From Gemmatimonas sp. (GTDB taxonomy: Bacteria > Gemmatimonadota > Gemmatimonadetes > Gemmatimonadales > Gemmatimonadaceae): DNA of 64,000 bases. Positions 1 to 49,801 of this stretch are shown piece after piece. Both the position numbers and the translations under genes were made by a program. Numbering within the stretch: position 1 is the first letter of the stretch; the number at the start of each line of letters is the position of its first letter. The stretch covers positions 1 through 64,000 of the forward strand of contig JANNVQ010000001.1 in assembly GCA_031414535.1 (NCBI GenBank), given 5' to 3'. The notes below the pieces were generated by a model, which was not told the DNA's origin, did no database searches, and was given only the letters and a program-made list of their open reading frames with translations.

Positions 1-84
1 CTCGGCTCCATCTTGTTGAAAGGTTCGCCGAGGCCCCACAACCGCATTTTATGGGAGCGCTCGCAGCAGAAGCAAACGTTATGT
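1..84 (+). repeat. attC-like site, right half (left half beyond the window edge)
   Basis: Ends ...GCAGCAGAAGCAAAC-GTTATGT (R' at 78-84), like the 3' arms of the sites at 1931 and 5386. Inner arm CCCACAACCGC (35-45) is complementary to GCGGTTGTGGG in the sibling left arms. Confidence 0.8.
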
Positions 85-105
85 CGACACCGGGACCCTT
101 TCGCG

Positions 106-840
106 ATGCCTCACGCTGTTGAACAGCTTTGGTCTCGTCACGCACCTGAGCAGGGCTATCCGGCCGGTGTCGTCGCGGTACCAAAGCCCATACCAGGCAT
201 CGCGTTCTTTCCCGGCGGGTACGGACTTTGGCGTCCCGACCCGATGCAGCCGCTCCCGCAGTTACCCGTTGGCGGAGTCATGGTGCTCGGGCACGACTTC
301 CATTCGGTCGCCGGTTACAACGCCTCCTTAGAACATGGCCGCGAGTCCGAGAAGCAGCCCACGTGGGGGCACATGCTTCGGCTTTTTCGGCGTGTTCCTG
401 TCGTTCTAGAAGAGTGCTTCTTCACGAACGTCTATATGGGACTGAGAGTGGAAGGAAAGACAGGTCCATTCCCCGGAGCCGAGAGCGCTTCCTTCGTCGC
501 GCATTGCGTTGATTTCCTCCGACAGCAGTTATCAGAGCAGCGGCCGTCCTTGGTTATCACGCTTGGTCTGAATGTTCCGCCTCTTCTCTCTCGTGTATCG
601 GGCGATCTTAGCGGATGGACGGAGCGAATGAGCATCAAGGAGTTGGACGCATCCGGTTCGTTGAGAGAATCCGTTGCTATCTCGGGCATCCGCAATTTCT
701 CTACCACTGTCGCGGCGCTCGTGCATCCGTCGCTCCGCAATGGCAACGTTCGCTTCCGACGGTATCGCGGCCACACGGGCGACGCCGCTGAAGTTGCGCT
801 GCTAAGAGACGCGCTGGAATCACGCGCGCGTGCGATGTAG
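106..840 (+). CDS. Uracil-DNA glycosylase superfamily protein (cassette gene)
   Basis: Motifs VLGHDF, FFTN, LVITLG and LVHPS follow the UDG-fold order. The ATG at 106 is downstream of the attC R', whereas the ORF-track start at 13 lies inside the attC. Confidence 0.7.
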   Translation: MPHAVEQLWSRHAPEQGYPAGVVAVPKPIPGIAFFPGGYGLWRPDPMQPLPQLPVGGVMVLGHDFHSVAGYNASLEHGRESEKQPTWGHMLRLFRRVPVVLEECFFTNVYMGLRVEGKTGPFPGAESASFVAHCVDFLRQQLSEQRPSLVITLGLNVPPLLSRVSGDLSGWTERMSIKELDASGSLRESVAISGIRNFSTTVAALVHPSLRNGNVRFRRYRGHTGDAAEVALLRDALESRARAM

Positions 841-1928
841 AGTCAACTTTGAAGTGCACCGTTGAAGGTCATGCAGCATAGATCTCCTCCGGAGTTCTGA
901 AGCCCAGCCGCTTACGGGGGCGGCGGTTGAGTGTGTCCGCGATGCGTTGGCACTCGTCCTGCGTGAGCCCCGCCATCGAGCGACGCTTCGGCAGGTACTG
1001 ACGGATGAGGCCGTTCGCGTTCTCATTGCTGCCCCGCTCCCACGAATGATGGGGCGTTGCGAAGTAGCACTTGGTGTCGACGACGGCCTCGAGCTTCTCA
1101 TAGCCGTGGAACTCTGTGCCGTTGTCGAGTGTGAGCGTGCGCACCGGCCGCGGCTGCGCGTCGATGAGCTGACGGAGTCGCGCGTTCGTCGCAGGCGTTT
1201 GGCGTGAGTCGAGCTGTCCAATGGCGATGAACCCAGACTTCCGCTCGACCAGCGTGAGGATGCACGCGGTGTCCGTCGTGCTGCCCATCACCGTGTCGCC
1301 TTCCCAGTGGCCGAAGCGCGAACGATTCTCGGCGCCCGCCGGCCGCGTCGAGATGTGCCGCTTCCCCGCCAGGCGCCCGCGACTGTCGTACGTGCCGTAA
1401 CGCTTCCGCAGGTTCTTGGTCATCACGCGCAGATGCGTGTAGAGCGTGCCACCATTCTCGCGGTCGGTATGGATGTGCCGGTAGATCGTCTCGTGGCTGA
1501 TCGCGAGGAGGTCGAATCGCTGGCACCAGCCGACGATCTGCTCCGGGCTCCAGTCCTCGCGGATCCAGTACTCGACGAACGCCCACTCCTCGGCCGTGAA
1601 CTGCGCGTTGCGACGCGAGACCCGGCGGCGCTCATTCGTATACGACTGGGCCTTATCGACCCAGTACGTGCGGCCGTCGGTGCGCCATGCGTTGCGGCGG
1701 ACCTCGCGGCTGATCGTGCTGGGCGCGCGCTGCAGCTCTCGGGCGATTGCGGCGGAGGAGTAGCCGAGCTTCCGCAACGCGGAAATGGCGTACCTTTCTT
1801 CGTGGGTGATCTGGGCGTAGGTCATGGCTGCCTTTCTCTTGGCGGAGGATTGAAGCCTAGCCTGCCCCAGGTCACCTCACCCACTTTCGGGTGCGGCAAC
1901 GGCGGTGCACTTAGTATGTGAATGCGCG
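836..1928 (-). mobile_element. IS30-family insertion sequence
   Basis: Imperfect ~26 bp terminal IRs TGTAGAGTCAACTTTGAAGTGCACCG (836-861) and CGGTGCACTTAGTATGTGAATGCGCG (1903-1928) flank a transposase. Exact ends are approximate. Confidence 0.85.
869..1825 (-). CDS. IS30-family transposase
   Basis: N-terminal HTH (IARELQRAPSTISRE), WSPEQI, GHWEGDT, DNGTEF, WERGSNENANGLIRQY, NRRPRKRLG. Confidence 0.95.
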   Translation of the reverse strand: MTYAQITHEERYAISALRKLGYSSAAIARELQRAPSTISREVRRNAWRTDGRTYWVDKAQSYTNERRRVSRRNAQFTAEEWAFVEYWIREDWSPEQIVGWCQRFDLLAISHETIYRHIHTDRENGGTLYTHLRVMTKNLRKRYGTYDSRGRLAGKRHISTRPAGAENRSRFGHWEGDTVMGSTTDTACILTLVERKSGFIAIGQLDSRQTPATNARLRQLIDAQPRPVRTLTLDNGTEFHGYEKLEAVVDTKCYFATPHHSWERGSNENANGLIRQYLPKRRSMAGLTQDECQRIADTLNRRPRKRLGFRTPEEIYAA

Positions 1929-1930
1929 CG

Positions 1931-2009
1931 GTATAACGACGCTTGCTGCCGATGAGCGCCGGTGCGGTAGCGGTTGTGGGAGCGCTCGCAGCAGAAGCAC
2001 ACGTTATGT
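1931..2009 (+). repeat. attC-like site (79 bp, internally shortened)
   Basis: GTATAAC...GTTATGT core sites; L'' GCTT[G]CTGC pairs with L' GCAGAAGC, leaving one extrahelical G. Confidence 0.85.
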
Positions 2010-2139
2010 CGACCGGGATTCAGAGGAAAAGCGCAGCCAACTTTCCCAGCTTCATCGTGATGCGTGTGGGCTGGCTTGTCCCCTCATCAGCTCCGGCTAT
2101 TCACGCCACCCGAATGACTCGGCATTCCCGCGGCAGGAC

Positions 2140-2652
2140 TCACCGCGGAAGGACGGGCTGGACGCGGCGAATGGCCGTCATAGGAAGGCGCGCGCCGCCG
2201 TGATATTCCACGATGCCCTCCATCACTCGACCGTTGTCGGTCAACCGCGCGAGAAATCTCACATCGCCCTCCCGCGAGGCAACGACCATACGGACGGAGT
2301 CTCCATCAACGGTGAGCACGCGTATTGCCAATGTGTTCGTCAGGTACATCGTGATCGAGCCAGCCCACCCCTGTTCCACCGGGCCGATTGCGAAGAAGCC
2401 GGGGGACGACCTCTCACCCGCACGCATCGTGAAGTCCCATATTCCCTGCAAGTCGACGCCGCCGCTTTGCGTGGCAGCACCCGCGCTGGTCTGCGCGGGG
2501 GGCGTAACGGGCGCAGTAGATCGCGTTGACTGCGCGCTGGCGGTCCCAGAAGCGAGCAGGATGGCGGCCAGTGCCGCGAGCGCTTGGCAACACCGTCGGC
2601 AGTTGTTTCTGAGCAGGGTCCCGGCAGACGTCGCGTTACAATCCTTGAGCAT
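2140..2652 (-). CDS. Hypothetical secreted protein (start uncertain), antisense to the array
   Basis: Signal-like ALAALAAILLASGTASAQ, Pro/Thr linker, then a beta-rich domain. Confidence 0.6.
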   Translation of the reverse strand: MLKDCNATSAGTLLRNNCRRCCQALAALAAILLASGTASAQSTRSTAPVTPPAQTSAGAATQSGGVDLQGIWDFTMRAGERSSPGFFAIGPVEQGWAGSITMYLTNTLAIRVLTVDGDSVRMVVASREGDVRFLARLTDNGRVMEGIVEYHGGARLPMTAIRRVQPVLPR

Positions 2653-2835
2653 AGTATTCTCTGGGTTGCGAGTTCAGCTCCGAAACGACTCGTCCTAGCT
2701 GATCCTCAGACTGACGCATAGACAGAGCCAGAGTTTCACACTGCCCTCGTACGCGCGCTGCGCACATCTCAACCGGATCGGGGCCTGTGGCTATTGTCAC
2801 GCACGCGCTATGAACCTTCCGTGATCGCGGCTGCG

Positions 2836-2888
2836 GCATAACGACGCTTGCTGCCGACGAGCGCGGGGGCGGTAGCGGTTGTGGGCCC
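2836..2888 (+). repeat. attC-like left half only
   Basis: GCATAACGACGCTTGCTGCCGACGAGCGC...GCGGTAGCGGTTGTGGG is near-identical to the left arm at 1931. No right arm follows; the TetR stop codon comes next. Confidence 0.8.
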
Positions 2889-2893
2889 TGAGT

Positions 2894-3487
2894 TCAGGGG
2901 GTTGACGCACCACCGGGCAAGGCCGCCAGGAAGTAGAAGTCGAGCATCGCGCCCAGCGGCGCGGCACTGCCGAGGAGTCTACTGCGCAGCGCAGCCCCTT
3001 CCCAGCAGTTCACCAGCAGGCCGGCGAGTTGCAGAACGTCCGCGTCTTCAGGAAGGTCGCCCTGGTCGCGGGCTTGCTCCATGCAGACGACGATTCGGTC
3101 CTGGATTGCAGTAAAGCACGCCTCGATCTTCTGGCGGAACACCGGGCTCACGCCGGACAACTCCTGCCCGAGCCCGCCCAGCAGGCAGCCCATGTATCCC
3201 TCCGTCCGGTAGCTCTCCCGCGTCAGCTCGAAGAACCCGCGCACCCGCGCCAGAGGCGGGCAACGCAGGTCGCCGAGGCATGCGTCGAGGCCGGCATGCA
3301 CCTGCTGCATGTACTGGTCCACGACCTGGAGACCAAAGTCTTCCTTGTCTCGGAAGTGATGATAGAACGACCCTTTCGGAAGCCGCGTCGCGTCGAGCAC
3401 GGCCTGGATGCCAAGGTCATGGTAGCCATGCTTGAGGAGCATGGCCTGACCGGCATCCAGGAGTCGCTGCTTGGTGGTGTGTGTCAA
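2894..3487 (-). CDS. TetR-family regulator, NemR-like
   Basis: TetR HTH (PKGSFYHHFRDKE), GCLLG motif, WEGA C-terminal motif. Confidence 0.9.
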   Translation of the reverse strand: MTHTTKQRLLDAGQAMLLKHGYHDLGIQAVLDATRLPKGSFYHHFRDKEDFGLQVVDQYMQQVHAGLDACLGDLRCPPLARVRGFFELTRESYRTEGYMGCLLGGLGQELSGVSPVFRQKIEACFTAIQDRIVVCMEQARDQGDLPEDADVLQLAGLLVNCWEGAALRSRLLGSAAPLGAMLDFYFLAALPGGASTP

Positions 3488-3509
3488 TTGGGCAACGTGC
3501 GGGTGATGA

Positions 3510-3893
3510 TTACTTAGTCATCTCTATCATGTGATCGATGACCAGGCTGTGCTCACGCTGCGGACTGAACATCACGATCTCCGCGTCTGCGTCGACCTTG
3601 ACATTGTGTCCGGCCGGCCAATGGAACAAGTCGTTGGCGCGCACCGTCTCCTGCCCTCCATCCTCGTCCGTTGTCGTGAGCTGCCCCTTCATCACGAAGC
3701 CCCAGTGCGGGCACTGGCACTGGTCGTGCTCAAGTCCCTGAAACAGCGGGGTGGTGTCAACACCGGCCGACAAGGTGAAGTACTCCCCGCTGATCGCGTC
3801 GAATCCGCGCACGGTTCCGAACCCGGTGCGCTGCCGAATCACCGCACCCGGGATCTCCATTCGCACGTCCACGTCGTCCTTGGCTACTCGCAT
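3510..3893 (-). CDS. Cupin-domain protein
   Basis: CQCPHWGFVMKG and HWPAGH cupin motifs; ATG at 3893 preferred. Confidence 0.8.
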   Translation of the reverse strand: MRVAKDDVDVRMEIPGAVIRQRTGFGTVRGFDAISGEYFTLSAGVDTTPLFQGLEHDQCQCPHWGFVMKGQLTTTDEDGGQETVRANDLFHWPAGHNVKVDADAEIVMFSPQREHSLVIDHMIEMTK

Positions 3894-3926
3894 GAGGCTA
3901 CCCTCGTCACTCGGGAAGTACTGCAG

Positions 3927-3944
3927 ATAGACCAATCGGTCTAT
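3927..3944. promoter_or_regulatory. NemR-type operator
   Basis: Palindrome ATAGACC-AATC-GGTCTAT matches the TAGACC-N4-GGTCTA NemR box and sits upstream of cupin-tetR. Confidence 0.8.
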
Positions 3945-3949
3945 TCCTG

Positions 3950-3978
3950 ACCCTACCCCCTGAAACCGCCGATGTCAA
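3950..3978 (-). promoter_or_regulatory. Sigma70 promoter for cupin-tetR
   Basis: Minus strand TTGACA (3978-3973)-N17-TAGGGT (3955-3950), immediately upstream of the operator. Confidence 0.65.
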
Positions 3979-4269
3979 GTGGAGTTCTCAGGCGTTTCGT
4001 GGATACTGCTAACCTCATCCGTCTCACGAGAGGGCATGCCAGCGTCGCATGGTTCGAGCAAGACCTACGCTACGCTCGCACCAGTGATTAGCGACCTTCA
4101 GCAGCGTCAGCTTGGCGACCGCAGAATGTTCTCGAAGCTGACTCACGCAATTGTTATTGCGCGAAACTTGATGGCTCACGGAGGAACAATGTCCGAATCG
4201 GTTCTGAACGTTGCCTGCAAGAACGGTCTTGAGCTCATTCCTCCGGTCGCTGCCCTTGCACAAGCCTAA
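3979..4269 (+). pseudogene. C-terminal fragment of a HEPN-motif protein (cassette remnant)
   Basis: RNLMAHG (Rx4H) motif, lower GC than flanks, no credible start, ends just before the attC at 4292. Confidence 0.5.
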
Positions 4270-4291
4270 ACCCTATTTCAGTTGCGAGGCG

Positions 4292-4386
4292 CCATAACGA
4301 CGCTTGCTGCCGACAGTCACGCTCTTGTAGCGGCCGCTGCGCAGCCGCATTTTATGGAGCGTCCACAGCAGTAGCACACGTTATGG
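4292..4386 (+). repeat. attC-like site (95 bp)
   Basis: CCATAAC and GTTATGG are perfectly complementary cores; arms GCTT[G]CTGC and GCAGTAGC. Confidence 0.85.
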
Positions 4387-4673
4387 CGACCGAACCGACA
4401 TCAATGCAGTACATGGTGATTGAGCATTTCCGCGGCGGGAATCCCTCGCCCGTTTACGCGCGCTTCCGGTCGCACGGGCGGCTCGCGCCCGAGGGGCTCA
4501 CGTACGTGAACAGCTGGGTGACCGACGATCTGACGACGTGCTATCAGGTCATGGAGTGCACGGACCGCGCGTTGCTCGACGAATGGATGCGCGCCTGGGC
4601 GGACTTGGTGGAGTTTGAGGTCGTGCCGGTGATTAGTTCGCCCGAAGCAGCCGCCCGTGTGCCGGCGCCCTGA
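4383..4673 (+). CDS. DUF3303-family protein (cassette gene; start may be 4404)
   Basis: YMVIEHF...GRLAPEGLTYVNSWV...CYQVMEC...WADLVEFEVVPV. Confidence 0.8.
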   Translation: MATEPTSMQYMVIEHFRGGNPSPVYARFRSHGRLAPEGLTYVNSWVTDDLTTCYQVMECTDRALLDEWMRAWADLVEFEVVPVISSPEAAARVPAP

Positions 4674-4750
4674 CGGCGGTTGGCGCAGATGGCCGTGCTA
4701 GAGAAGCGGGGCGGCGGCCCCGCACATTATTGCACAACCTGACGTTATGG
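4668..4750 (+). repeat. attC-like site of a different sequence type, R'' mutated
   Basis: CCCTGAC-GGC-GGTT[G]GCGCA ... TGCAC-AACC-TGAC-GTTATGG has the same spacing and extrahelical G as the other sites. AAC is changed to GAC. Confidence 0.6.
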
Positions 4751-4961
4751 CGACTTTGGTGATAGACCGGCTTTAAACCGAGGATGCTGACAGCATGAGC
4801 CTCTTCGCTTCGTCCCGCACCTGCTCCTCGGCGGGCGCATCGTGAGCGGCAACCTGTTGTTCTCTGTGCTCGGCGCCGTGGGCCTTGCGCCATCCTGGTC
4901 GTACCTCGACGACGCCGATGCGCCCGCCCACAAGGCGTCGGCTGGATTCGGTCGGCGCGCA

Positions 4962-5002
4962 GGCTAACGATGCTTACTGCTGATGAACGCGGGTGCGGCG
5001 GC
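4962..5002 (+). repeat. attC-like left half only
   Basis: GGCTAACGATGCTTACTGCTGATGAACGCGGGTGCGG resembles the left arms at 1931 and 2836. A short upstream ORF (4842-4967) stops at the TAA of this core. Confidence 0.7.
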
Positions 5003-5369
5003 AGGCCGCACCGTGGACCACGACACCGCTCTTGCTCGCGTCGTCTTCCGCGCCGAAGTCTTCCGTGGCCTCGATGCGCTAGCGGCCGTCGGCGGGCTCG
5101 ACGCGCTGAGCCAGCCGGCCGAACTCGACCGCCTCAAGACCTTCCTCGGCTGGGCGCTGCCCTCCACAGTGCTCTCCAGTGTCGTCGCAGCGGAGCTCAC
5201 GGCCGGCGCGCGCACACCGAAGGCACTCGACGCGCTCAACGACGCGTTGCTCGCGTGTCAGGCGCGTGAGCACGGATGGACAATCGTCACGCGCGATGCG
5301 GACTTTGGCGCGCTGCGCCGATCCATCAGCGGCCTCAAGGTCGCGGCGCCGTTCCCCGCCCGTCCGTAG
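5003..5369 (+). pseudogene. Deleted or fused VapB-like antitoxin and PIN (VapC-like) toxin remnant
   Basis: The C-terminus LSSVVAAELTAGAR...NDALLACQAREHGWTIVTRDADF is PIN-like, but the N-terminal DTN motif and central helices are absent. The ORF-track ATG (4983) lies inside an attC half. Confidence 0.6.
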
Positions 5370-5385
5370 AATCCGGCGCGCGCCT

Positions 5386-5522
5386 GTATAACGACGCTTG
5401 CTGCGGTCAGCCGCGGGTAAGGATGCAGTTGTGAGGCGCCCGCGCTATTGTTTATGAGACGTCCTGCGGCCGCCCCACAACTGCTTTTATGGAAGCGTCC
5501 ACCGCAGAAGCAAACGCTAGTT
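5386..5522 (+). repeat. attC-like site (137 bp), R' core GTT changed to GCT
   Basis: GTATAACGACGCTTGCTGC...GCAGAAGCAAAC-GCTAGTT; inner arms GCAGTTGTG and CACAACTGC. Confidence 0.8.
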
Positions 5523-5553
5523 TGACAAAGGCCACCATCCGTGAGGTGTCACA

Positions 5554-5754
5554 GTGAACCATCAACAACGCCGGATTGTCCTCGCAGTTTGCTTCGGCAT
5601 GGTCATCGGACCCGTATTAGGTCCACGGCTCGGTGACTTGGTGGTCGCTCAGTTCGGCGACGGTGCCGTCTGGCAGGTGCTGCCGTGGCTCCTTCTCGCG
5701 GCCATCTTCGTGTTCTTGCTGCATCGCATCAAGCGCGTGCCGCCCACCGCGTAG
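5554..5754 (+). CDS. Small two-TM membrane protein
   Basis: GAGG RBS upstream; two hydrophobic segments. Confidence 0.6.
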   Translation: MNHQQRRIVLAVCFGMVIGPVLGPRLGDLVVAQFGDGAVWQVLPWLLLAAIFVFLLHRIKRVPPTA

Positions 5755-5783
5755 TAGCCTCGCCGACGCGGAGCGCGCGACCC

Positions 5784-6023
5784 ATGCCTCGCGGTGAGCC
5801 GAAGCCCACGACGCTCAGGCGCGCCTCCACGCTGAGCGACGAACAGCAGGCGCGCGTCCGGAGCCTGCTCGAGCCGCTGTGCACGCCGCACGCCGATCCG
5901 AAGGTGCGCGCGAAGCTCCAGTATGTCTATCGCTTCGAGGGACCGGCGGTGGTGTTCTTCGAGCGCCGCCCGCACTTCGAGACCGGCGAGTGGTTCTCGA
6001 GAATGGTTCGCGGGCGTGCTTAG
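5784..6023 (+). pseudogene. Truncated DUF3024-like protein
   Basis: VRAKLQYVYRFEGPAVVFFERRP...GEW, then an abrupt end where it meets the convergent gene. Confidence 0.5.
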
Positions 6024-6520
6024 CGCACTGGGATCGGCGCCGCGGGACTCGACTTCGTGAGCAAGGTAGTCCGCCGCGAGCCACCCGACTCGAACCGGAC
6101 AACGTTGACCTGATCGGTGTGCAGTTCGGTCAGCAACAGACTCGAGAGCCGTACCGGTGCGCGCGCGCCACTCCCCTCGGCGCGGTAGCAGACCAGATAG
6201 ACGTCGCGCACGCGCTCGATGCCGCAGCTCCGCAGCGGGAGCGTATTCCCCGCTGCATCGGTCACGACGACCCGCTGCTGGACGTAGCGATCACCCTCGT
6301 CGGCACGGACGGAGGAATCGCTCGGCGCTGCGTGACCTGCGAAGGCCGCCACACTCGCGGAGAAGTCGTCGGCGAAGATGCGGATCCGGAGTTCGATCGC
6401 GTTCCGCTCGACGGTCGCGACCGTGAGGGTGCTGTGGATCTCGTGCCGCACGGCCGCGGGCCGCGCGATCGGCGTCTCCGCCGTGCCGATGAGCAGCGTC
6501 GCCACGAGTAGGGTAATCAC
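6020..6520 (-). CDS. Secreted protein, DUF6702-like
   Basis: GTG at 6520 overlaps the upstream TGA; signal peptide, HEIHSTLT, IRIFADD, DQVNVV. Confidence 0.7.
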   Translation of the reverse strand: MITLLVATLLIGTAETPIARPAAVRHEIHSTLTVATVERNAIELRIRIFADDFSASVAAFAGHAAPSDSSVRADEGDRYVQQRVVVTDAAGNTLPLRSCGIERVRDVYLVCYRAEGSGARAPVRLSSLLLTELHTDQVNVVRFESGGSRRTTLLTKSSPAAPIPVR

Positions 6521-7122
6521 GGAAGCCGATCCCAGGCCCAGACGGTGGCGATGAGTGTGACCGCAGCGGAGACACCGGCCAGCCGGATCTGGAACGGGGC
6601 GACGCGTGTGATGCCGCCGGAGCGCAGCCGTCCGATCAGGCGATCCAGCGCCACGAAGGCGAGTGCCGCCGCGAGGAGCACGGTCACCTGCCCCAGTTCG
6701 ACACCGAGGTTGAAGCCGAGGAGCGGGAGGGTGATGTCGTCCACGAGAAGACTGCGCAGGTAGCCGGCGAAGCCAGCGCCGTGCACGAGCCCGAAGAGGA
6801 GCGCGAAGACGGGTCGGTGGCGCGCGGTACTCCCGGCCGCGGCGCGCTCCCGCAGAACGAGATTCTCGATCCCCGTCGCGACAATTGTGACCGGGATCAG
6901 GAACTCCACCCACGCCGACGGCACCGCGAGCCGGCCGGTGACGGCGAGCGCGAGCGTCAGCGAATGCCCGATGGTGAAGGCGGTGATCACCGCGAGTGCG
7001 GCTCGCCAGTCTCGCGGCCGGTAGATCGCGGCCAAGGCGAGCAGGAAGAGGATGTGGTCGGCGCCACCGACAGCGACGATGTGCCGGAATCCGAGTTCGA
7101 GGTAGGCGGCGAGGTCTCCCAT
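6517..7122 (-). CDS. HupE/UreJ-family membrane protein
   Basis: LGFRHI...DHILFLLAL, TAFTIGHSLTL, FGLVHGAGFA, GFNLGVELGQ. Confidence 0.9.
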   Translation of the reverse strand: MGDLAAYLELGFRHIVAVGGADHILFLLALAAIYRPRDWRAALAVITAFTIGHSLTLALAVTGRLAVPSAWVEFLIPVTIVATGIENLVLRERAAAGSTARHRPVFALLFGLVHGAGFAGYLRSLLVDDITLPLLGFNLGVELGQVTVLLAAALAFVALDRLIGRLRSGGITRVAPFQIRLAGVSAAVTLIATVWAWDRLP

Positions 7123-7125
7123 CGG

Positions 7126-8382
7126 CTACCGCGCGCCCTTCGCGAGCGTGAGCGCAGACGTGAGCGCGGCGGCGACTGAGGCGTCGATCGCGGAGTCAAT
7201 CGCGGCGGCGTGCGCGCGGAGCAGCGGATCCTGCGTGCCCAGTTGGAGCGCTTGCGTCATGGCGACCTTCGCTTCGGCGGGCCGATCGGACTTCAAGAGC
7301 GCCCAAGCGAGGAGATCGTACGCATAGATGTCCTTGCGGTCACGGAGCTCCTCCTCCACACGCTCGAGGACTTCGCCCACGCGCTCGCCCCGGTCGAGGA
7401 GCGCGAGACTCCAAGTCCGGTGGAAGGGACCACTGCGTGCGCTCACAGCCACGTCGAAGGCGGCGCGGAGTTCCTGCGCCTGCACGGCGCGGCCGAGTTC
7501 ACTGTGCGCGCCGGCGAGGAGGAGGATCAGCTCCGGGTCGAGCTCGGCGCCGATCGCGCGTTCCCCCCAGTCGACCACGGCCTGCGCGTCGCCCCGCGCT
7601 GCGGAGAGCCGCGTCATCGCGGCGAGGAGCCGCGAATCCTCGGGTTCGATCTCGAGACCACGCCGAAACGCGGACTCGGCGCGGTTGGGACGGTCGGCAC
7701 GCCGCTCGAATTCGCCGAGCCGGAGTGCGAACCAGGCCTTCACCTCGGTCGGCACATCGGTGCGCCGCCAGGCTTCGTCGAGAGCGTCGGTGAGAAGACG
7801 GCGGGACTCGGAGACCTCGCCGCGCAGTTCGTGCCAGCGGGCGAGCCGCGGCGCGACGGACAGATGGGTCCGCAACGGGCGCACCCGCTTGAACTCCTCC
7901 CCGGCGAGAGCGTAATTCCCGCGCTCCATCGCCACTTCGGCGAGGATCGCGTGATACTCGAGGAGATCAGGGTCGCGGGCGACCATCTCGCGTGCGATCC
8001 CCTCCGCCTCGCTGAAGCGATGCTGTGCGACGAGGGTCGCGACGAGCGTCGCCGACGCGGCGCCATTGCGGTACACGCGACTGGCGAGCGAGCGACGTGC
8101 GAACGCTTCGGCAGTGAGGATGTCGGACCAACCACCTCCTTCGCGGGAACGTTGGAGATGGAGCCCCGCGAGCTGAGTGAGCACGAGCGCGCTGGTGGAA
8201 TCGGCGGCGAGCGCCTTACCCCAGACGGCGATCTGCGTATCGCGCTGCGGACGTTCACTGAATGCGGAGGCCGACAACGCGGCCACCGTGCCATTCCCGG
8301 CACGGTGGGCCGCCCGCACCCCGCCCCAGAGTGCCGCCCCGACGAGCGCGACGACGGGGACGAGATGCAGGCGTCGAATCAT
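7126..8382 (-). CDS. TPR-repeat protein with N-terminal anchor
   Basis: Helical repeats, AQHRFSEA, RKDIYAYDLLAWAL; translationally coupled to the upstream gene. Confidence 0.8.
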   Translation of the reverse strand: MIRRLHLVPVVALVGAALWGGVRAAHRAGNGTVAALSASAFSERPQRDTQIAVWGKALAADSTSALVLTQLAGLHLQRSREGGGWSDILTAEAFARRSLASRVYRNGAASATLVATLVAQHRFSEAEGIAREMVARDPDLLEYHAILAEVAMERGNYALAGEEFKRVRPLRTHLSVAPRLARWHELRGEVSESRRLLTDALDEAWRRTDVPTEVKAWFALRLGEFERRADRPNRAESAFRRGLEIEPEDSRLLAAMTRLSAARGDAQAVVDWGERAIGAELDPELILLLAGAHSELGRAVQAQELRAAFDVAVSARSGPFHRTWSLALLDRGERVGEVLERVEEELRDRKDIYAYDLLAWALLKSDRPAEAKVAMTQALQLGTQDPLLRAHAAAIDSAIDASVAAALTSALTLAKGAR

Positions 8383-8924
8383 CGTGGCGACTCGAGGTAC
8401 GGGAACGTCGCGCTGAAGCTGCGGGTGGACATCGGCACGTTGTCGCTCGTCAGTCCGGCGACGACACTCGCCGACGGATCGAGCAGGTTGCCGAAGATGG
8501 CGGTGAGACCGGCGTCAACCACGTCGTCCTGCAGACGGCGGCCTCCGTATCCGGCCGCGAGCGCCCAGCTCAACCACCCGGCACTGTTTGCCGCGCGGTT
8601 CGGGTAGACAATCAGCATGTCCGGTACGAGCACAGCCACGAGCGTGTTACCGATCGTGTTACCACGGCTGAACGCGTCGGTGAAGCCCTTGATCTTGGGG
8701 CCGAACCCGTTGGCCACGTCGGTCGCCGGGGCGGTGGTGTTGTGCAGGCCGTGGTCACGCTTGGGGAAGAAGACCTCGCTCACGAGCGGGTTGCCGAGGC
8801 GTTCGACTTGGGCGTAGACGCGCTCGGTGTCGGGGCCAGTCACGTTGGTATCGTCGCAAGCGGCGAGGACGAGCGGGAGGAGGAGTGCAGCGCCGAGGAG
8901 GCGCGCGGTGGACAGGTATCGCAT
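8379..8924 (-). CDS. DUF4331-like lipoprotein (C-terminal half of the domain)
   Basis: Lipobox LAAC; QVERLGNP, GGRRLQDDVVD, FPYL. Confidence 0.75.
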   Translation of the reverse strand: MRYLSTARLLGAALLLPLVLAACDDTNVTGPDTERVYAQVERLGNPLVSEVFFPKRDHGLHNTTAPATDVANGFGPKIKGFTDAFSRGNTIGNTLVAVLVPDMLIVYPNRAANSAGWLSWALAAGYGGRRLQDDVVDAGLTAIFGNLLDPSASVVAGLTSDNVPMSTRSFSATFPYLESPR

Positions 8925-8968
8925 GGGTCGGGTTCCGATGGGAGGGGAAAGACGTTCTGTGGTCGGCA

Positions 8969-9682
8969 TCAGCGGCTGATCGTGCCCCAGACGCCGATCC
9001 TGGCATCCGCAGCGGTATTGCTCGTCAGCATGGACTTCGGGAGTTCGATGACAATCGCCAGCGCGTTGAACGGGCGGAGGAGGTCAACGCCCGGGGTCCG
9101 GAACTGCGACGCCGTGGGGGTCGAGGGTCCCGAGAGCGGGCCGGTGGCTGGGCGACGGTCGGGGATGATGTTGAAGAACTGCTCGAGGTCGATTACGAAC
9201 GGATCCGCGCGTAGTCCGGCAAAGACCTGCATGCCGTTGGTGCCGGCGACCGTGGTTCCGATCGTGCCGCGGGCGAGGGGCCCGGAGGTGACGAGCATCG
9301 CATTGGTGCCGGTCATCGTCGGGGCGATGGGGCCGCGGACGGTAAAGGTCTGGCCGGTCGGGCTCACGCCGTCGAAGGTGATCTGGATGACCTGATCCTC
9401 GACCGCGTCCCCAGTCGCATCAATCTTGAACTGATAGAGCAGATTCGGATCGAACGCGGCGTTGGAGCCGGCAATCGGGGACGATGTGGTCATCACGAGC
9501 GTGATGCGGTCGGCGCTCGAGCCCGGGAAGGCGTAGACATCGTTGATGTCCATTCGCGGGTTGAGTTCGACTTCCGGGGTGTCCATATGATCGGACGCGC
9601 GAGCGCGTTCGGTGGCGACCAACGCCACGGCTCCGACGGCGAGCGCGAACGCGGTGCGTGCGGCCCAGCGATTCTTCAGCAT
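8969..9682 (-). CDS. DUF4331-like secreted protein (N-terminal half of the domain)
   Basis: Signal peptide then ASDHMD, DINDVYAF, VFAGLRADPF, GVWGT. Confidence 0.8.
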   Translation of the reverse strand: MLKNRWAARTAFALAVGAVALVATERARASDHMDTPEVELNPRMDINDVYAFPGSSADRITLVMTTSSPIAGSNAAFDPNLLYQFKIDATGDAVEDQVIQITFDGVSPTGQTFTVRGPIAPTMTGTNAMLVTSGPLARGTIGTTVAGTNGMQVFAGLRADPFVIDLEQFFNIIPDRRPATGPLSGPSTPTASQFRTPGVDLLRPFNALAIVIELPKSMLTSNTAADARIGVWGTISR

Positions 9683-9753
9683 ACCAGCTCCTTCGTGTTG
9701 GATCGTGAGTGCGCCCTACCGCGAGAGCGCGGGGAGCGGGGGAACACTCTTGC

Positions 9754-9779
9754 TACGTCACGAGCCAGCGGACCGGATG
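9754..9779 (-). promoter_or_regulatory. Candidate ECF-sigma promoter
   Basis: Minus strand CATCC-N17-CGTA, between the hairpin and the DUF4331 start. Confidence 0.5.
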
Positions 9780-9783
9780 TGTG

Positions 9784-9826
9784 ACAACGCTCACAGAATC
9801 GCAGATCGCGATTCTGTGAGCGTTGT
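9784..9826. terminator. Perfect 19-bp inverted repeat (likely terminator after the anti-sigma gene)
   Basis: ACAACGCTCACAGAATCGC-AGATC-GCGATTCTGTGAGCGTTGT. Confidence 0.7.
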
Positions 9827-9916
9827 GGGCCTACGGCGCGAACGGATGAGTCCGTACTACATCATCTTTTTCAGCATGCTCTTGGCGGCGACCATCGTTG
9901 GCATCACGCCGCGCAC

Positions 9917-10711
9917 TCACGCGGCGGGGAAAGTCCCGGCGAGGAAGGGCGTGGTGGTCGGCTGCGGCGAACCGCCCTTCGGCTCGAGCGAGACGAGCAC
10001 GGCGGAGACACCTGCTGCCGTCGTTGGCACGGTGAAGTCCTCGATCAAGGCATGTCCGTCCGGATCGGAGTTGAACACCTTGATCGAGACGGGCTTGCCG
10101 TCGACGAGCGCCCAGATCTGGTAGTCGCGTCCTGCAGGGGCCGGCGCGAGACGGAAGGCGTGTGCGACCACCTTCCCCTGCTTGGCATTCCAGAAGAACT
10201 GGATTCCGGGCCCTGTCTCACCGGCGCTCGACGTGAGGTGGACCACGTAGAGATCCTTCTCCGCGTCGAGAACGGTGTTCAGCGTACGGTCGCGGTCGGC
10301 GAGTTTCGCGTCGAGCGCCGCTACACTGGAGCGCAGGCGCGCGAGTTCGCCGCGTTGCCGCCAAGCGTCGGCGCCGAGTCCGACCGCCACGACGAGCGAC
10401 GCGGCGAGCGCAATTGGGACCCAGGAGGGGAGGCGGCGGATGGCAAGGACCTGCGTTTCGCGCGCGCCGCGGACGGGCTCCTTGGCAACGGCGGCCAAGA
10501 GCGCGCCGCGCAGCTCCGGGGATGGCGTCACCGAGCGCGCCTGCGCGGCCGACATCGTCTCGGTGACGCCGCGGAAGGCCTGCACTTCGGCGGCGAGCGC
10601 GCGGTCGGTCCGCATCGCCGCCTCGATCGCGGCCGTCTCCTCGGGCGTCGTCGCGCCGAGCGCGAAGAGCGGCGCCAGTTCGCGCAACTCGTCGTGCGAG
10701 TATGTGGTCAT
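9917..10711 (-). CDS. Anti-sigma factor, RskA-like
   Basis: One TM segment; YQIWAL and VSLEPKGGSPQPT RskA C-terminal motifs. Confidence 0.9.
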   Translation of the reverse strand: MTTYSHDELRELAPLFALGATTPEETAAIEAAMRTDRALAAEVQAFRGVTETMSAAQARSVTPSPELRGALLAAVAKEPVRGARETQVLAIRRLPSWVPIALAASLVVAVGLGADAWRQRGELARLRSSVAALDAKLADRDRTLNTVLDAEKDLYVVHLTSSAGETGPGIQFFWNAKQGKVVAHAFRLAPAPAGRDYQIWALVDGKPVSIKVFNSDPDGHALIEDFTVPTTAAGVSAVLVSLEPKGGSPQPTTTPFLAGTFPAA

Positions 10712-11355
10712 GCGCGACTCCCTTGGTCGAGTGGCGCTAGCAGTTCCCGCAACTTGAGCATCCCCAGGCGGATTCGTGTCTTGATTGAGCCGAGCGGTTC
10801 CGCCAACCGCTCCGCGACTTCCACATGCGTGAGTCCTTCATAAAACGCGAGTTCGATCGCCCTTCGTTGCGCGGGCTGCAAGGTGCGGAGCGCCGCATCC
10901 ACTGTCTCGCGCAATTCATCGGCCTCGACCCCGGCACTCGGGTCGCCGTCGATGCTCGTATCGACCAGCACCAGCGGCGCTTCCCAATCCTCTCCGAGCG
11001 GCTCACGTTTCTCGCGCCGTGCGGTCGTGCGGGCAAAGTCGAGCGCCCGGCTTCGGGCGATGCTCGTGAGCCACCCCATCACACTCCCGCGGGACCCGTC
11101 GAACGAGTCTGCCGTCCGCCACGCTTGCAAGAATGCTTCCATCAGCACGCCTTCGGCATCGGAACGGTCCCGCACGAAGCGCATCACCAGTCCGAGCAGC
11201 ACCGGCGCATGGCGGTCGTAGAGCGACGCCAGACTCTGTTCATCGCCGCCCTGCAACCCTACTACGAGCGCACGGTCGTCCGCGGATGTTTCGCGGGCGG
11301 ACGCGGCTGCGGAGGAACGGGACTCGGCTGCGGGCATGGTCGCGGTGAGGGTCAT
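10708..11355 (-). CDS. ECF RNA polymerase sigma factor (SigK-like)
   Basis: LYDRH, WLTSIARSRALD, LAFYEGLTHVEVAERLAEPLGSIKTRIRLG; coupled to the anti-sigma gene. Confidence 0.93.
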   Translation of the reverse strand: MTLTATMPAAESRSSAAASARETSADDRALVVGLQGGDEQSLASLYDRHAPVLLGLVMRFVRDRSDAEGVLMEAFLQAWRTADSFDGSRGSVMGWLTSIARSRALDFARTTARREKREPLGEDWEAPLVLVDTSIDGDPSAGVEADELRETVDAALRTLQPAQRRAIELAFYEGLTHVEVAERLAEPLGSIKTRIRLGMLKLRELLAPLDQGSRA

Positions 11356-11607: not shown

Positions 11608-11790
11608 GTCTTCCAACGCAGTTCCGAAGCCGAGTCGCTTGCGCGGCCGGCGATTGAGTTCGTGGCCGATGCGTGGGCAGTCGCGCTGCGTCAGGTGTTC
11701 CATCGGGACGCCCTTCTTCCACGTACTGGCGAATCAGGCCGCTCGCGTCCTCGTTGCTGCCGCGCCCCGAAGCGTGATGCGGCGGCGCGA
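11608..11790 (-). pseudogene. IS30-family transposase C-terminal fragment (frameshifted)
   Basis: APPHHA..RGSNEDASGLIRQY and MEHLTQRDCPRIGHELNRRPRKRLGF align with the intact transposase at 869-1825. Confidence 0.8.
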
Positions 11791-11863
11791 CGTGTCACCC
11801 ATGCCGCGGACGTCGTGGACGAGAGTGGCGTTCTCACGTTGCCTATCGAGGCCCGTGAGACCA

Positions 11864-14861: not shown

Positions 14862-15238
14862 GCGCGGCGGCGGCGTAGCAGGTGCAGACGCAGCAGACCA
14901 GCAGTCATGGCCAGCAAGCCGAGCACGAGTGGAAACACCGGCGACTCCCCGCGCTTTACATGCACAATCACCGCCCCGCCCATGAGTGCGCCAAGGGCCA
15001 CGCCCGCCACGGGCGAGAGCACCGGCACTACTCCCGTGGCTGCCGGCAGAATCAATCCCAGCGCCCCCGCCACCTCGGCGCTGCCGATTGTCTTCACTTC
15101 GGCGTCACTGAAGTCCGTGGACCAGGCCATGTTGGGATCGGCCCGGAGCTCGGTCCCCGACTTGGCCAGCTTCGTGCCGCCCGCGCCGGCAAAGGCCAGT
15201 GCAACGAGGACTTGGAGTACCCACACAGCTTTGTTCAT
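14858..15238 (-). CDS. DoxX-family membrane protein
   Basis: WVLQVLVA..F..AG..KL, IG.AEV.GALGLILP, MGGAVIVH. Confidence 0.88.
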   Translation of the reverse strand: MNKAVWVLQVLVALAFAGAGGTKLAKSGTELRADPNMAWSTDFSDAEVKTIGSAEVAGALGLILPAATGVVPVLSPVAGVALGALMGGAVIVHVKRGESPVFPLVLGLLAMTAGLLRLHLLRRRRA

Positions 15239-15270
15239 TGGCGCCTCACAGATGCGCGAAGAGGATAATC

Positions 15271-15307
15271 GTCAGGACAAGTGATTGTCAGTAGCTCTGA
15301 CGGTCAG
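15271..15307. promoter_or_regulatory. Candidate MarR operator array
   Basis: Perfect GTCAG-N5-CTGAC at 15287-15301; GTCAG also at 15271 and 15303 (16-bp period). Confidence 0.55.
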
Positions 15308-15348
15308 GATGGCTTATCATAAAGGTCCCCTCCACGACTGTCAACTCC

Positions 15349-15843
15349 ATGCCCCCTCGTCGTCCGCTGCCCCAGGTCGCCACTGACGTCATGTCCCCGC
15401 CACCTGCGGCGGTGTCGAACGCCGTGGGATTCCTCGTCAATGAAGTGGCTGCACTGTTTCGCCAGCGGTTCGAAGAGGTCCTGGCGGCGCACCGGCTGCG
15501 CCGACGCCAATACCTGATGCTGTTGGTGCTGCGCGATGAGGGTCCGATGCCGCAGCAAGCATTGGGTCAGCGATTGGCGATGGACCGCACCACGACGATG
15601 CAATTGGTACAGAACCTCGCGGATGCGGGCTCCGTGAATCGGCACGATGATCCGTCTGACCGACGCGTGTATGTCCTGTCGCTGACGGCGAGCGGCCGAC
15701 GGTTAGTCGCCACGCTTGAAGGACTCATCAAGCGCGCCGAGTCAGAGTTACTCGCGCCGCTGACTGCGGACGCGCGGAAGACCTTCGCGACGCAACTGCG
15801 TGCCGTGCTCGCCGCCAAGGCGGTAGCCGACCGGGCCTCGTAG
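15349..15843 (+). CDS. MarR-family regulator (start uncertain)
   Basis: QQALGQRLAMDRTT...DPSDRR...LTASG; divergent from doxX. Confidence 0.92.
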   Translation: MPPRRPLPQVATDVMSPPPAAVSNAVGFLVNEVAALFRQRFEEVLAAHRLRRRQYLMLLVLRDEGPMPQQALGQRLAMDRTTTMQLVQNLADAGSVNRHDDPSDRRVYVLSLTASGRRLVATLEGLIKRAESELLAPLTADARKTFATQLRAVLAAKAVADRAS

Positions 15844-15921
15844 ACCGTCATCGGCCTCAGGGTGCTTGATGCCTACGCAGGCCGTACCGCGCCTACCACT
15901 CTTCGAGGATGAGCTGTGTAG

Positions 15922-15981
15922 AGGTCTCCTCACCCACAGTTGGGGGTGGGCACAGTGTCGCGCTTACTATTTGAATGCGCG
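15922..15981 (-). mobile_element. Isolated IS30 5' terminus (relic)
   Basis: AGGTCTCCTCACCCAC...CTTACTATTTGAATGCGCG resembles AGGTCACCTCACCCAC...CTTAGTATGTGAATGCGCG at 1869-1928. Confidence 0.7.
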
Positions 15982-15998
15982 CTATCCAGCTTCCGACT

Positions 15999-16799
15999 AT
16001 GCCGACAGTCTTTCCTGAGCATCCGCATCTCCGCGCATTGACCCGTGCAATTTCGCCGCGGTTGGCGGAGGGTGAACTCACGCACCTGGAGCGCACGCCA
16101 ATCAATCTCGCGGCCGCGCGCGCGCAGCACGAGGCGTACGCGCGCGCCCTTGCATCGCTCGGCTGCGAGGTGCACGAAGTGGAGCCGGCGCCGGAGTATC
16201 CCGACTCCGTGTTTATTGAGGACACAGCGGTGGTCTTCGATGAAATCGCGGTCATCACGCGCCCTGGAGCCGAGTCGCGGCGCGGCGAGACGCTGGCCGT
16301 GGAGCGCGCGCTCGCGCCACTTCGGCCAGTTGCGCACATCGTAGCCCCCGGCACGCTCGATGGCGGCGATGTGCTAGTGGTGGGGAAGCGCGTCTTCGTT
16401 GGCCGCACCGGACGCACGAATCGTGAGGGGATCGCACAGCTGCAGGCGGTGGTGGCGCCGCACGGGTATTCCGTCGAGGCCGTGGAGGTGACGGGGTGTC
16501 TGCATCTCAAGACGGCCGTGACCGCGCTCGACGACCACACGGTGCTCGTGAATCCCGCATGGATTGGTGCGGAGGCGCTCGCCGGGCTCGAGCGAATCGA
16601 GGTGGATCCCGCGGAGCCGATGGGAGCAAACATCGTGCGGGTGGGCTCGGCGCTGCTCTATGGTGCCGCGTACCCGCGCACGCTCGCGCGGATTGTGGCG
16701 CGCGGGTACGCACCGGTGTGCGTGGATGCGTCGGAGGTGGCGAAGGCCGAGGGGGCGGTGACCTGCTGCTCGCTAGTGATGCTGGTGCGAAGCGCTTAG
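15999..16799 (+). CDS. Dimethylarginine dimethylaminohydrolase (DDAH) family
   Basis: PDSVFIEDTAV, RRGE, DGGDV, LHLKT, EGAVTCCS. The ATG at 15975 lies in the IS end, so 15999 is preferred. Confidence 0.9.
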   Translation: MPTVFPEHPHLRALTRAISPRLAEGELTHLERTPINLAAARAQHEAYARALASLGCEVHEVEPAPEYPDSVFIEDTAVVFDEIAVITRPGAESRRGETLAVERALAPLRPVAHIVAPGTLDGGDVLVVGKRVFVGRTGRTNREGIAQLQAVVAPHGYSVEAVEVTGCLHLKTAVTALDDHTVLVNPAWIGAEALAGLERIEVDPAEPMGANIVRVGSALLYGAAYPRTLARIVARGYAPVCVDASEVAKAEGAVTCCSLVMLVRSA

Positions 16800-48338: not shown

Positions 48339-49801
48339 AGCGCGAACCAAGTCATGCGAAGCAACAGGAGGCCGTGGCGCCAACGCTGGATGTTCGTATC
48401 GCCGTACACGCGCTCACGATAGCGGATAGGCAGGTCTTGGATACGAAGATTCAGCTTGGCCGCGCCGAACAGCAGGTCGAAATCGCCGAACGGGTCGAAG
48501 TCACCGAAATACGCCCGGTTCGCCGCGATGCGATCGTAATCGCGGCGCCATAGGACCTTGGTGCCACAGAGAGTGTCCTTCACGCGTTGTCCCAAGAGCC
48601 AGGAGAAGGCCCAACTGAAGCCATGATTCGCGAACAAGTTCAGCAGTTGCATGGCTTGCCCTTCCATGGGATACACGAGGCGTACCCCGTTCACCATTTC
48701 ACCGAGTCCATCGCGCGCGGCCGCATAAAATCGCGGCAGCTCTTCGGGAGGCATCGTGAGGTCGGCGTCGAGAATCATGAGCAAATCGCCGCGTGCCTTC
48801 GCGAATCCGAGCCGCACGGCATCGCCTTTGCCAGAGCCCGTTTGGCGGAACGCTTGGCACGACCATTCAGGATGCGCCGCAATCTCGCGCTGGATGGTGT
48901 CCCAGGTGTCGTCTCGCGAGTGGCCTTCGATGAACACAATCTCGGTCTCGCGGCCCATGCGTGGCAGGCGCGCGAACAGTGCCGCTATGTTGCCGGCCTC
49001 GTTGCGTGCGGGCACAATCACCGACACGCTCGGCGCCGACTCAGGCATCGCACGAGGCTTGGGCCGCGCAACCATCAATGTGGTGAGCGCGAGTAAATGG
49101 AAGGGCGGGACTCGGACGAGGCCCCGATTCAGCAAGGGGGCGAGGAGCGGGATGTCCAGCGGTAGGAGAATCTCGCGGGACTCGCGGACGACCTCAAAGC
49201 CGGCCAGGTTGAGAAGGCCGCGTAAATCGCCGGCGGCCAGCCAATTCTGATGGAGCACTGGTCGCGCGAGGCGCAGCGCGAGTGCTGCCGCGAGGAGCGG
49301 CTCCCACACCTTGCTGTACGACGTAATCACCAGCCGGGTCTGCGGCGTACACACGCGGGCCACTTGCTCGAGTACCTGCTGCACGTTCCACAGGTCGTTG
49401 ACGAGGTCCGACAGGATGACAACATCAAACGTGCCCTCGATCGGCAACGCATGGGCATCAGCAGCAACGAAATGCAGGTGCGGGTGACGGGCACGCGCCG
49501 ATGCCAGCATTTCCGTCGAGAAGTCGACGCCGAGGCCAAATGACGGCTGGCACGCCGCGAGGAGGTCGCCGCCGGCACAGCCAATTTCGAGCACACGTTG
49601 ACCCGGCGCGATCGCGAACTGGTGGATCTCCGCCATGCGCCGATGGTAGGCACCGCCGAATCCCGGTCGGTGACGCTCCTGAATCGCCACGCTATCCCAA
49701 TTGCGTATGCGGGCCGCGCGATGGTGATCACCCGGACCCGTCTCCATCGTCCCACTCAATTCGGTCCGGTCGTTCACGGAGGGGAATATCTCCGTTCGCA
49801 T
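48317..49801 (-). CDS. Class I SAM methyltransferase-GT2 glycosyltransferase fusion
   Basis: LEIGC.GG in the N-terminal part; PARNE, ILDADL, DTLCGTK, GDFDLLFGA in the C-terminal part. Start could be 49747. Confidence 0.88.
   Translation of the reverse strand: MRTEIFPSVNDRTELSGTMETGPGDHHRAARIRNWDSVAIQERHRPGFGGAYHRRMAEIHQFAIAPGQRVLEIGCAGGDLLAACQPSFGLGVDFSTEMLASARARHPHLHFVAADAHALPIEGTFDVVILSDLVNDLWNVQQVLEQVARVCTPQTRLVITSYSKVWEPLLAAALALRLARPVLHQNWLAAGDLRGLLNLAGFEVVRESREILLPLDIPLLAPLLNRGLVRVPPFHLLALTTLMVARPKPRAMPESAPSVSVIVPARNEAGNIAALFARLPRMGRETEIVFIEGHSRDDTWDTIQREIAAHPEWSCQAFRQTGSGKGDAVRLGFAKARGDLLMILDADLTMPPEELPRFYAAARDGLGEMVNGVRLVYPMEGQAMQLLNLFANHGFSWAFSWLLGQRVKDTLCGTKVLWRRDYDRIAANRAYFGDFDPFGDFDLLFGAAKLNLRIQDLPIRYRERVYGDTNIQRWRHGLLLLRMTWFALWRLKFR

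Follow-up and report, generated by a model that had tools for sequence, protein, structure and literature searches.

The first 5,522 nucleotides of the stretch analysed here, positions 1 to 64,000 of contig JANNVQ010000001.1 from Gemmatimonas sp. (assembly GCA_031414535.1; hereafter the window), hold the remains of an integron-type cassette array. We propose, with a probability of roughly 0.78, that these remains are the decayed distal end of one of the three arrays that the genome carries, each headed by a predicted attI site, and that all three are likely filled by the single integrase of the genome. The array tail is ordinary in itself and is part of a multi-head system. The window corresponds to contig C1:1-64000 of a 58-contig assembly (G000), and the start of this contig cuts the array on its left. 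A first-pass annotation of the window had described seven attC-like sites and read them as the distal, eroding end of a chromosomal integron with intI left of the window, or as an attC cluster that lacks an integron integrase (CALIN), with a lineage-specific attC family. The cassette array, its eroding distal end and the lineage-specific family are all supported; the choice between intI to the left and a CALIN misses the layout of one IntI and three attI-headed arrays, although the tail may still be that of the intI array.

A search of the genome for intI returned one intact gene, which lies outside the window at C31:45625-46566. Its product alone among seven matches exceeds the TIGR02249 cut-off (413.7 bits, cut-off 265); the gene has no stops, the catalytic R-K-H-R-H-Y residues are intact, and the protein carries the IntI-specific insertion found in IntI1 and absent from the XerD of the genome. 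The gene is transcribed towards an attI-like core and the cassettes, a co-oriented, inverted layout, and the relative loci with clear attC matches also have attC downstream of intI on the same strand (the intI locus L037 was left out of this comparison because the motif is absent from it). The conserved core lies ~85 bp past the intI stop and ends in TAATACAC-GTTA, and its continuation matches the R'' core of the first cassette at 9/9 bases. Copies of this core head two arrays without intI, on C23 (92.8% over 97 bp) and on C10 (29/30 nt), each again with 9/9 bases shared with its first R''. Position and junction both lead us to predict that the three cores are attI sites. The genome holds 105 attC sites on 18 contigs, on one strand per contig except for a fold-back at the end of C31: arrays begin on C31, C23 and C10 and end on C1, C9 and C30, eleven contigs lie wholly inside an array, and C14 has a lone site. 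Three heads match three tails, and the window is one of these tails.

Several heads to one integrase are also found among relatives. We found the attI-like core in 22 of 55 genomes of the genus, versus none for the reversed control; an IntI over the cut-off is encoded in 29 of 41 genomes, G000 included. Thirty loci were examined of 41 core matches: 10 have intI upstream and 20 do not, two of the 20 having ~500 bp of upstream sequence. attC sites lie downstream of the core only, in 10/10 relative loci. A first R'' is visible at 18 of the 23 heads that have no intI, and the match is perfect at 15 of them (permutation mean 1.2, maximum 7). G070, a single contig, has three cores and one IntI, with 52, 32 and 4 exact attC arms in its arrays and one lone copy (88/89 in arrays). 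The nearly closed G017 has five cores and one IntI over the cut-off, and its largest array is without intI (52 R cores including the head, versus 27). Cassettes of 732 and 634 bp in G070, and of 183 and 347 bp in G017, are 100% identical between the intI-linked array and an integrase-less one. Moreover, four pairs of integrase-less heads, C10 with G017 among them, have their upstream gene in common between species and a different first core. Because these near-closed relatives have three and five headed arrays, one IntI each and identical cassettes between arrays, capture in trans by one integrase is favoured as the likely course of events.

The fold of the attC sites is well defined. The family ranges from 79 to 144 bp, with two extrahelical bases, an unpaired central spacer and a variable terminal stem. 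Bottom-strand folding, as the first-pass annotation had advised, places a small internal loop between an R box and an L box; the L box contains a bulged C, a bulged T lies six bases past it (seven in a common variant), and a long terminal stem follows. Compensatory changes affect 13 of the 40 predicted pairs (RNA parameters), the bottom strand is the more stable one in 45 of 58 complete sites (mean -41.7 versus -39.5 kcal/mol, DNA parameters), and the AAC/GTT of the RYYYAAC and GTTRRRY cores pair with a probability above 0.5 in 57/57 sites (median 0.98). The register TAAC-N3-GCTT[G]CTGC ... GCAG-AAGC-N4-GTTA had been read correctly. The extrahelical G claimed with it is indeed bulged on the top strand; on the recombining bottom strand, however, the bulges are C and T, spaced T-N6-C and not the usual T-N6-G. 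The class 1 dfrA14 site is also T-N6-C, and IntI1 excises cassettes with such attCdfrA1-type sites efficiently (PMC3053210). Our sites resemble the attCdfrA1 type in that six bases separate the T and C bulges of the bottom strand; those of G000 differ in their length of 130-144 bp, in a long G+C-rich terminal stem, and in a spacing between AAC and bulge that is one base below that of dfrA14.

The matching of cassette starts to their own R'' is the strongest, if indirect, sign of cassette traffic. Such matches were found in 25 of 37 neighbouring pairs, with a permutation mean of 3.5 and a maximum of 12 in 10,000 permutations, whereas the two cores of one and the same site match in 7 of 58. From known IntI behaviour, the bottom strand of attC would fold to a hairpin with bulged C and T, and IntI would excise the cassette as a circle and insert it at the G|TT of any attI. 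The newest cassettes would enter at the head and the older ones would shift to the tail, since insertion occurs at attI; the sites at the tail would be broken by deletions, by the insertion of TetR-cupin and by an IS30 element that homes to attC. At somewhat better than even odds, we further suggest a multi-dock integron, where copies of a module of attI plus promoter have come to lie at several chromosomal loci that lack intI, with a single integrase moving cassettes between all these loci; if true, the largest array can be one without an integrase. Three integrase-less heads of G017 (L072, L073, L076) have a common ~200-bp leader just after a host gene, and a related leader is present at C10. 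These common leaders suggest that the attI module may be copied as a unit.

Several observations weigh against the proposal of three arrays served by one integrase. G000 is in 58 contigs, so that a second intI or a further head could be missing. Some relatives (G042, G008, G015 and G052) carry two or three IntI; besides, the relatives are kin and not independent of one another, and a second intI could go unseen in a fragmented genome. The candidate cassette promoter (Pc) motif TTGCG(G/A/C)-N17-xAxxxT, present upstream of attI in 17 of 30 loci, was derived from these very loci, with no control set. Our sites have 7 nt from AAC to the first bulged base, compared with 8 in dfrA14, the single class 1 site that was measured. 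Within the window, neither of the two neighbouring pairs of full-length sites shows a perfect core match between cassettes. Finally, no contig overlap of at least 25 nt joins C1 to a head, and the window may be an ordinary intI-linked tail.

Other explanations must be weighed against the same evidence. The palindrome could be of the repetitive extragenic palindromic (REP) or miniature inverted-repeat transposable element (MITE) kind, with no tie to site-specific recombination, and its high homogeneity, ~100 copies and long internal stem are what such repeats would show. Yet 88 of 89 copies in G070 fall in three clusters and none occurs in 18 control stretches of 15 kb, the copies being confined to single-strand arrays and not scattered in both orientations; cores match across cassettes and not within sites, and an IntI gene lies directly upstream of one array. 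Distribution and core matching together refute this reading, to which we attach next to no credence, in agreement with the first-pass annotation. A less improbable but still unlikely view is that the arrays without intI are ordinary CALINs, frozen relics of intI loss or of a split by rearrangement, with activity restricted to the intI-linked array and the window either a relic or the plain tail of the single active integron. Such origins are in print (PMC4889954), and the C23 head retains ~50 bp of the intI 3' end, as a deletion or a duplication would leave. The heavy decay of the window would also fit, but decay at a tail tells little of the head. Frozen relics are hard to reconcile with the fully identical cassettes in intI-linked and integrase-less arrays, with perfect attI junctions at 15/18 heads, with a largest G017 array that has no intI, and with shared loci whose first core differs between species.

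Alternatively, the extra arrays could be active but filled in a different way, by a second intI that the assembly misses, by a mobile integrase arriving from outside, or by homologous recombination of near-identical attC sites. The fragmentation of G000, its assembly broken at arrays, the average likeness of 76% between attC sites and the rearrangements seen at arrays (G070 versus G017, at the C31-type head and C30-type flank) would all be compatible with it. However, G070 on its one contig and the nearly closed G017 each have one IntI over the cut-off, and a new cassette right behind attI, with a matching core, is not what homologous recombination between attC sites would produce. We judge this route less likely still than frozen relics, and retain the proposal of several attI-headed arrays that one integrase would fill.

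The head that precedes the window tail can be narrowed down in part. Flank synteny linked no head to C1, because C1 is mostly accessory DNA; the contigs of public runs gave no neighbour for C1 at its far end; and the ends of C14, C5 and C29 did not settle the linkage of C1, while C9 was found to join C14. The sequence of the first window site also begins contig C30, and its 17 nt of overlap with the end of C42 are common to C30, hence no link. The counterpart of C30 flanks the tail belonging to the C10-type head in G017, but that of the intI array in G070. Should C30 pair with C10, C1 would be the tail of the intI array or of the C23 array; if C30 pairs with C31, C1 would be the tail of an integrase-less array. 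These possible pairings give about two chances in three that the window tail belongs to an integrase-less head. In G070 the C31-type head directly adjoins the C30-type flank, whereas in G017 ~100 kb separates them. This stretch of ~100 kb between two arrays in G017 (585-750 kb) is absent there in G070 (2413-2457 kb), as if arrays were rearrangement points.

We next consider the sites of the window, all on the plus strand. attC-derived sequence is present at each of the seven positions that had been proposed, three of them full length. Site A (1-84) is a right part truncated by the contig start, with its R' core GTTATGT at 78-84. Site B (1931-2009) is a complete short form of 79 bp with AAC and GTT cores and an internally deleted terminal stem, a form that recurs on contig C22; its R-box pairing probability is 0.97-0.99. 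Site C (2836-2888) is a left half, 92% identical to site B over 53 nt (nhmmer E 1.2e-08). Site D (4292-4386) is complete, 95 bp, with AAC and GTT cores and a pairing probability of 0.99-1.0. Site E (4668-4750), which is decayed, represents a second attC family and not the main one; it has a deletion and an AAC to GAC mutation, and aligns with intact second-family sites of the relative G042. Site F (4962 to ~5021, the right border being approximate; nhmmer E 9e-04) is again a left half, and site G (5386-5522), the last one, is full length at 137 bp, with its R' core changed from GTT to GCT and its ends unpaired in the fold. Sites B and D alone in the window have pairing AAC/GTT cores, and are likely the only remaining recombination substrates.

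The covariance-model search proposed earlier was run with a model of our own, built from 18 G000 sites; this model is lineage-specific and misses the class 1 dfrA14 site. It recovered site G (137.5 bits; the site belonged to the training set), site B (66.3 bits) and site D (63.0 bits). Site E (14.6 bits, E 0.13), site C and site A stayed below significance, site F was absent from the matches, and nothing else in the 64-kb window exceeded 15.2 bits. An Rfam search gave 0 matches. The decay is not an assembly error, as contigs from two public runs reproduce the window region, those of one run covering 54 to 7000 in overlapping pieces; run X1 may be the source of the present assembly, and run X2 is another sample of the same study. 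Joints in the run contigs are short-sided (31 nt or less among those listed) and were not counted as evidence.

Short unrelated genes had been said to separate the sites. This holds in part, the spacers also including an IS30 element, a TetR-cupin block, a minus-strand open reading frame (ORF) and deleted remnants. The window is a clear record of how an array tail decays. Between sites A and B, a uracil-DNA glycosylase-like cassette gene for 244 residues (106-840, plus strand; PF03167 E 0.0023, below cut-off) now finds its stop codon within the left end of the IS30 element. The cassette between sites B and C contains a 170-residue ORF running against the array (2140-2652, minus strand), with no family match. 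A TetR regulator (2894-3487) and a cupin gene (3510-3893), both assigned by Pfam, follow site C on the minus strand (2894-3893). The same block occurs in 5 of 54 other genomes of the genus; since no attC lies beside it in these five, it is likely a non-cassette insertion that cut site C. For want of attC at the relatives' loci, we rejected the idea that it is an inverted cassette. The 96-residue ORF at 3979-4269 (plus strand), without a family match, is by its position likely the 3' remnant of a cassette gene. A DUF3303 cassette gene (4383-4673, plus strand; PF11746 E 5e-28) has its stop codon within site E. Between sites F and G, 5022-5369 (plus strand) is the deleted remnant of a two-gene cassette for an antitoxin and a VapC/PIN toxin (PF01850), three blocks of which are 77-80% identical to an intact G017 cassette (L236 ~4030-4750). 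The 128-residue ORF at 4983-5369 is a fusion of remnants and was rejected as a gene. No attC follows the terminal stretch at 5523-6023 (plus strand), which has a 66-residue membrane ORF (5554-5754) and a DUF3024 fragment (5784-6023). Scanning 1-6200 for promoters and terminators showed no excess over shuffles.

The element ahead of site B (836-1928, minus strand) belongs to the IS30 family; its transposase (869-1825) matches NF033563 with 282 bits (cut-off 80). The ends, set from relatives at 72-86% identity, are imperfect repeats with AAGTGCAC in common, and the right end lies 5 nt ahead of the TAAC of site B. This position is nearly constant in the group: 18 of 21 distinct right ends (34 loci) have AAC exactly six bases on, one of the other three has AAC after a short duplication, and two are without it; at these junctions the left arm of the adjoining site was checked, not each full attC. 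The window thus presents one more case of an IS30 element fixed in position beside attC. Of 10 copies for which both ends could be seen, 4 have a 3-bp target duplication; the window copy has none, and its flanks differ (CGA left, CGG right). The left flank agrees with the expected end of the first cassette and the right flank does not. Because the flanks differ, they suggest that cassettes between two IS30 target sites may have been deleted. Targeting of attC has been described for the IS1111 group (ISKpn4, ISPst6; PMC11187229), which shares with our element an insertion at a fixed place at attC sites. That group, however, has a DEDD (IS110/IS1111) transposase guided by RNA, whereas the window element has an IS30-family transposase and so falls outside the group, and it lies just outside R'', leaving the attC whole.

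Other insertion sequences were seen in or near the arrays. The window has a decayed IS30 fragment at 11611-11798 and a lone motif resembling an IS30 right end at 15960, neither of which adjoins an attC. A different IS30-family element (36% identical protein) sits at ~28700-29990 of C9, directly after the half attC with which that array ends, and the tail of the G070 1.34 Mb array has a close copy of this element. In G017, an element of ~1.4 kb with a 383-residue transposase, IS110-like by eye, occupies one fixed position inside the attC right arm (L073 ~14887-16222, three copies in L074, and L075 ~3169-4506, in array-oriented coordinates). At L079 13073-14107 (G070), the terminal stem of an attC is interrupted by a 1-kb insert that has TGT...ACA ends and a short duplication; the insert is IS481-like by its ends alone.

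Integrons have been reported in Gemmatimonadota (PMC8618304), among them that of Gemmatirosa kalamazoonensis KBS708, which has over 10 attC sites (PMC9024848). This strain, presumably of the same phylum as our host, has an IntI 56% identical to ours and an attI-like core downstream of intI; its attC sites differ, belonging to another family (no nhmmer match). Its IntI is the best named match to ours, which fits the earlier guess of a Gemmatimonadota-like host. Co-oriented integrons of the Treponema denticola type (PMC3607928, PMC4889954) are also similar, with an IntI that bears the integron-specific insertion and is transcribed towards attI and the cassettes, a long array, homogeneous attC sites and toxin-antitoxin cassettes. 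The G000 system differs by its three heads for one intI (three to five in two near-closed relatives); PMC3607928 states one attI per integron, further ones not being sought there.

CALINs occur roughly as often as complete integrons, and the usual view takes them as degraded. By the definition of two or more attC sites with no intI nearby, the term may fit contig C1, which starts inside an array, and it fits the C10 and C23 heads, two of three arrays in G070 and four of five in G017. The published CALINs likewise are arrays without nearby intI, with an IntI elsewhere in the genome; mobilisation in trans has been suggested for them, and those of Xanthomonas lie at conserved loci. The integrase-less arrays of the G000 type differ in having kept an attI copy and apparently gained cassettes. 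The published origins of CALINs (intI loss, splitting, secondary-site insertion) carry no mention of a retained attI in the portions of these sources available, arrays without intI can also arise when insertion takes place at attG sites (10.1101/2022.09.11.507474), and IntegronFinder confines attI detection to the clinical classes. A full-text literature search, with most subscription journals and supplements outside it, found neither integrase-less arrays with a retained attI nor an IS30 element at attC, which does not establish their absence from print. If many CALINs keep attI and fill in trans, the integron would be a genome-wide network and not a single locus, and tools that ignore attI would miscount integrons. 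The short attI signature, the near-closed genomes with three to five heads and one IntI, and the identical cassettes make capture in trans directly testable in this lineage.

As the GC skew of the G000 contigs was too noisy for orienting, replication direction was read from the GGGNAGGG motif, which we take to be replication-oriented; on G070 it occurs 17 to 1 in the first half and 4 to 13 in the second. An orientation against the fork was rejected as a general rule: six further genomes have intI on the same contig as dnaA, and intI runs with the fork in five of them (G042, G084, G204, G233, G035) and against it in one (G074). Published sedentary integrons are in the opposite orientation to that seen here in 25 of 30 cases, and lagging-template arrays have at most 22 cassettes (PMC5371416), versus as many as ~50 in the arrays here.

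Some further observations concern the arrays of G000 and its relatives. Three decayed sites (C9 1424-2680) lie beyond an array end, and a lone intact attC is at C14 320641-320775, both away from any attI-like head. The attC left arm that folds back where C31 ends (48662-48793) is likely an assembly artefact, and two attC sites of C16 are separated by a 14.7-kb gap (L086, 1758-16455). The arrays of G070 and G017 contain many copies of small cassettes (246 and 183 bp), 85-100% identical, both as tandem repeats and in different arrays. Past the array, window positions 6020-11355 carry DUF6702, HupE/UreJ and TPR genes and then more ORFs, including what by eye is a likely pair of anti-sigma and extracytoplasmic function (ECF) sigma factors, and this block is kept together in 8 of 54 other genomes of the genus.

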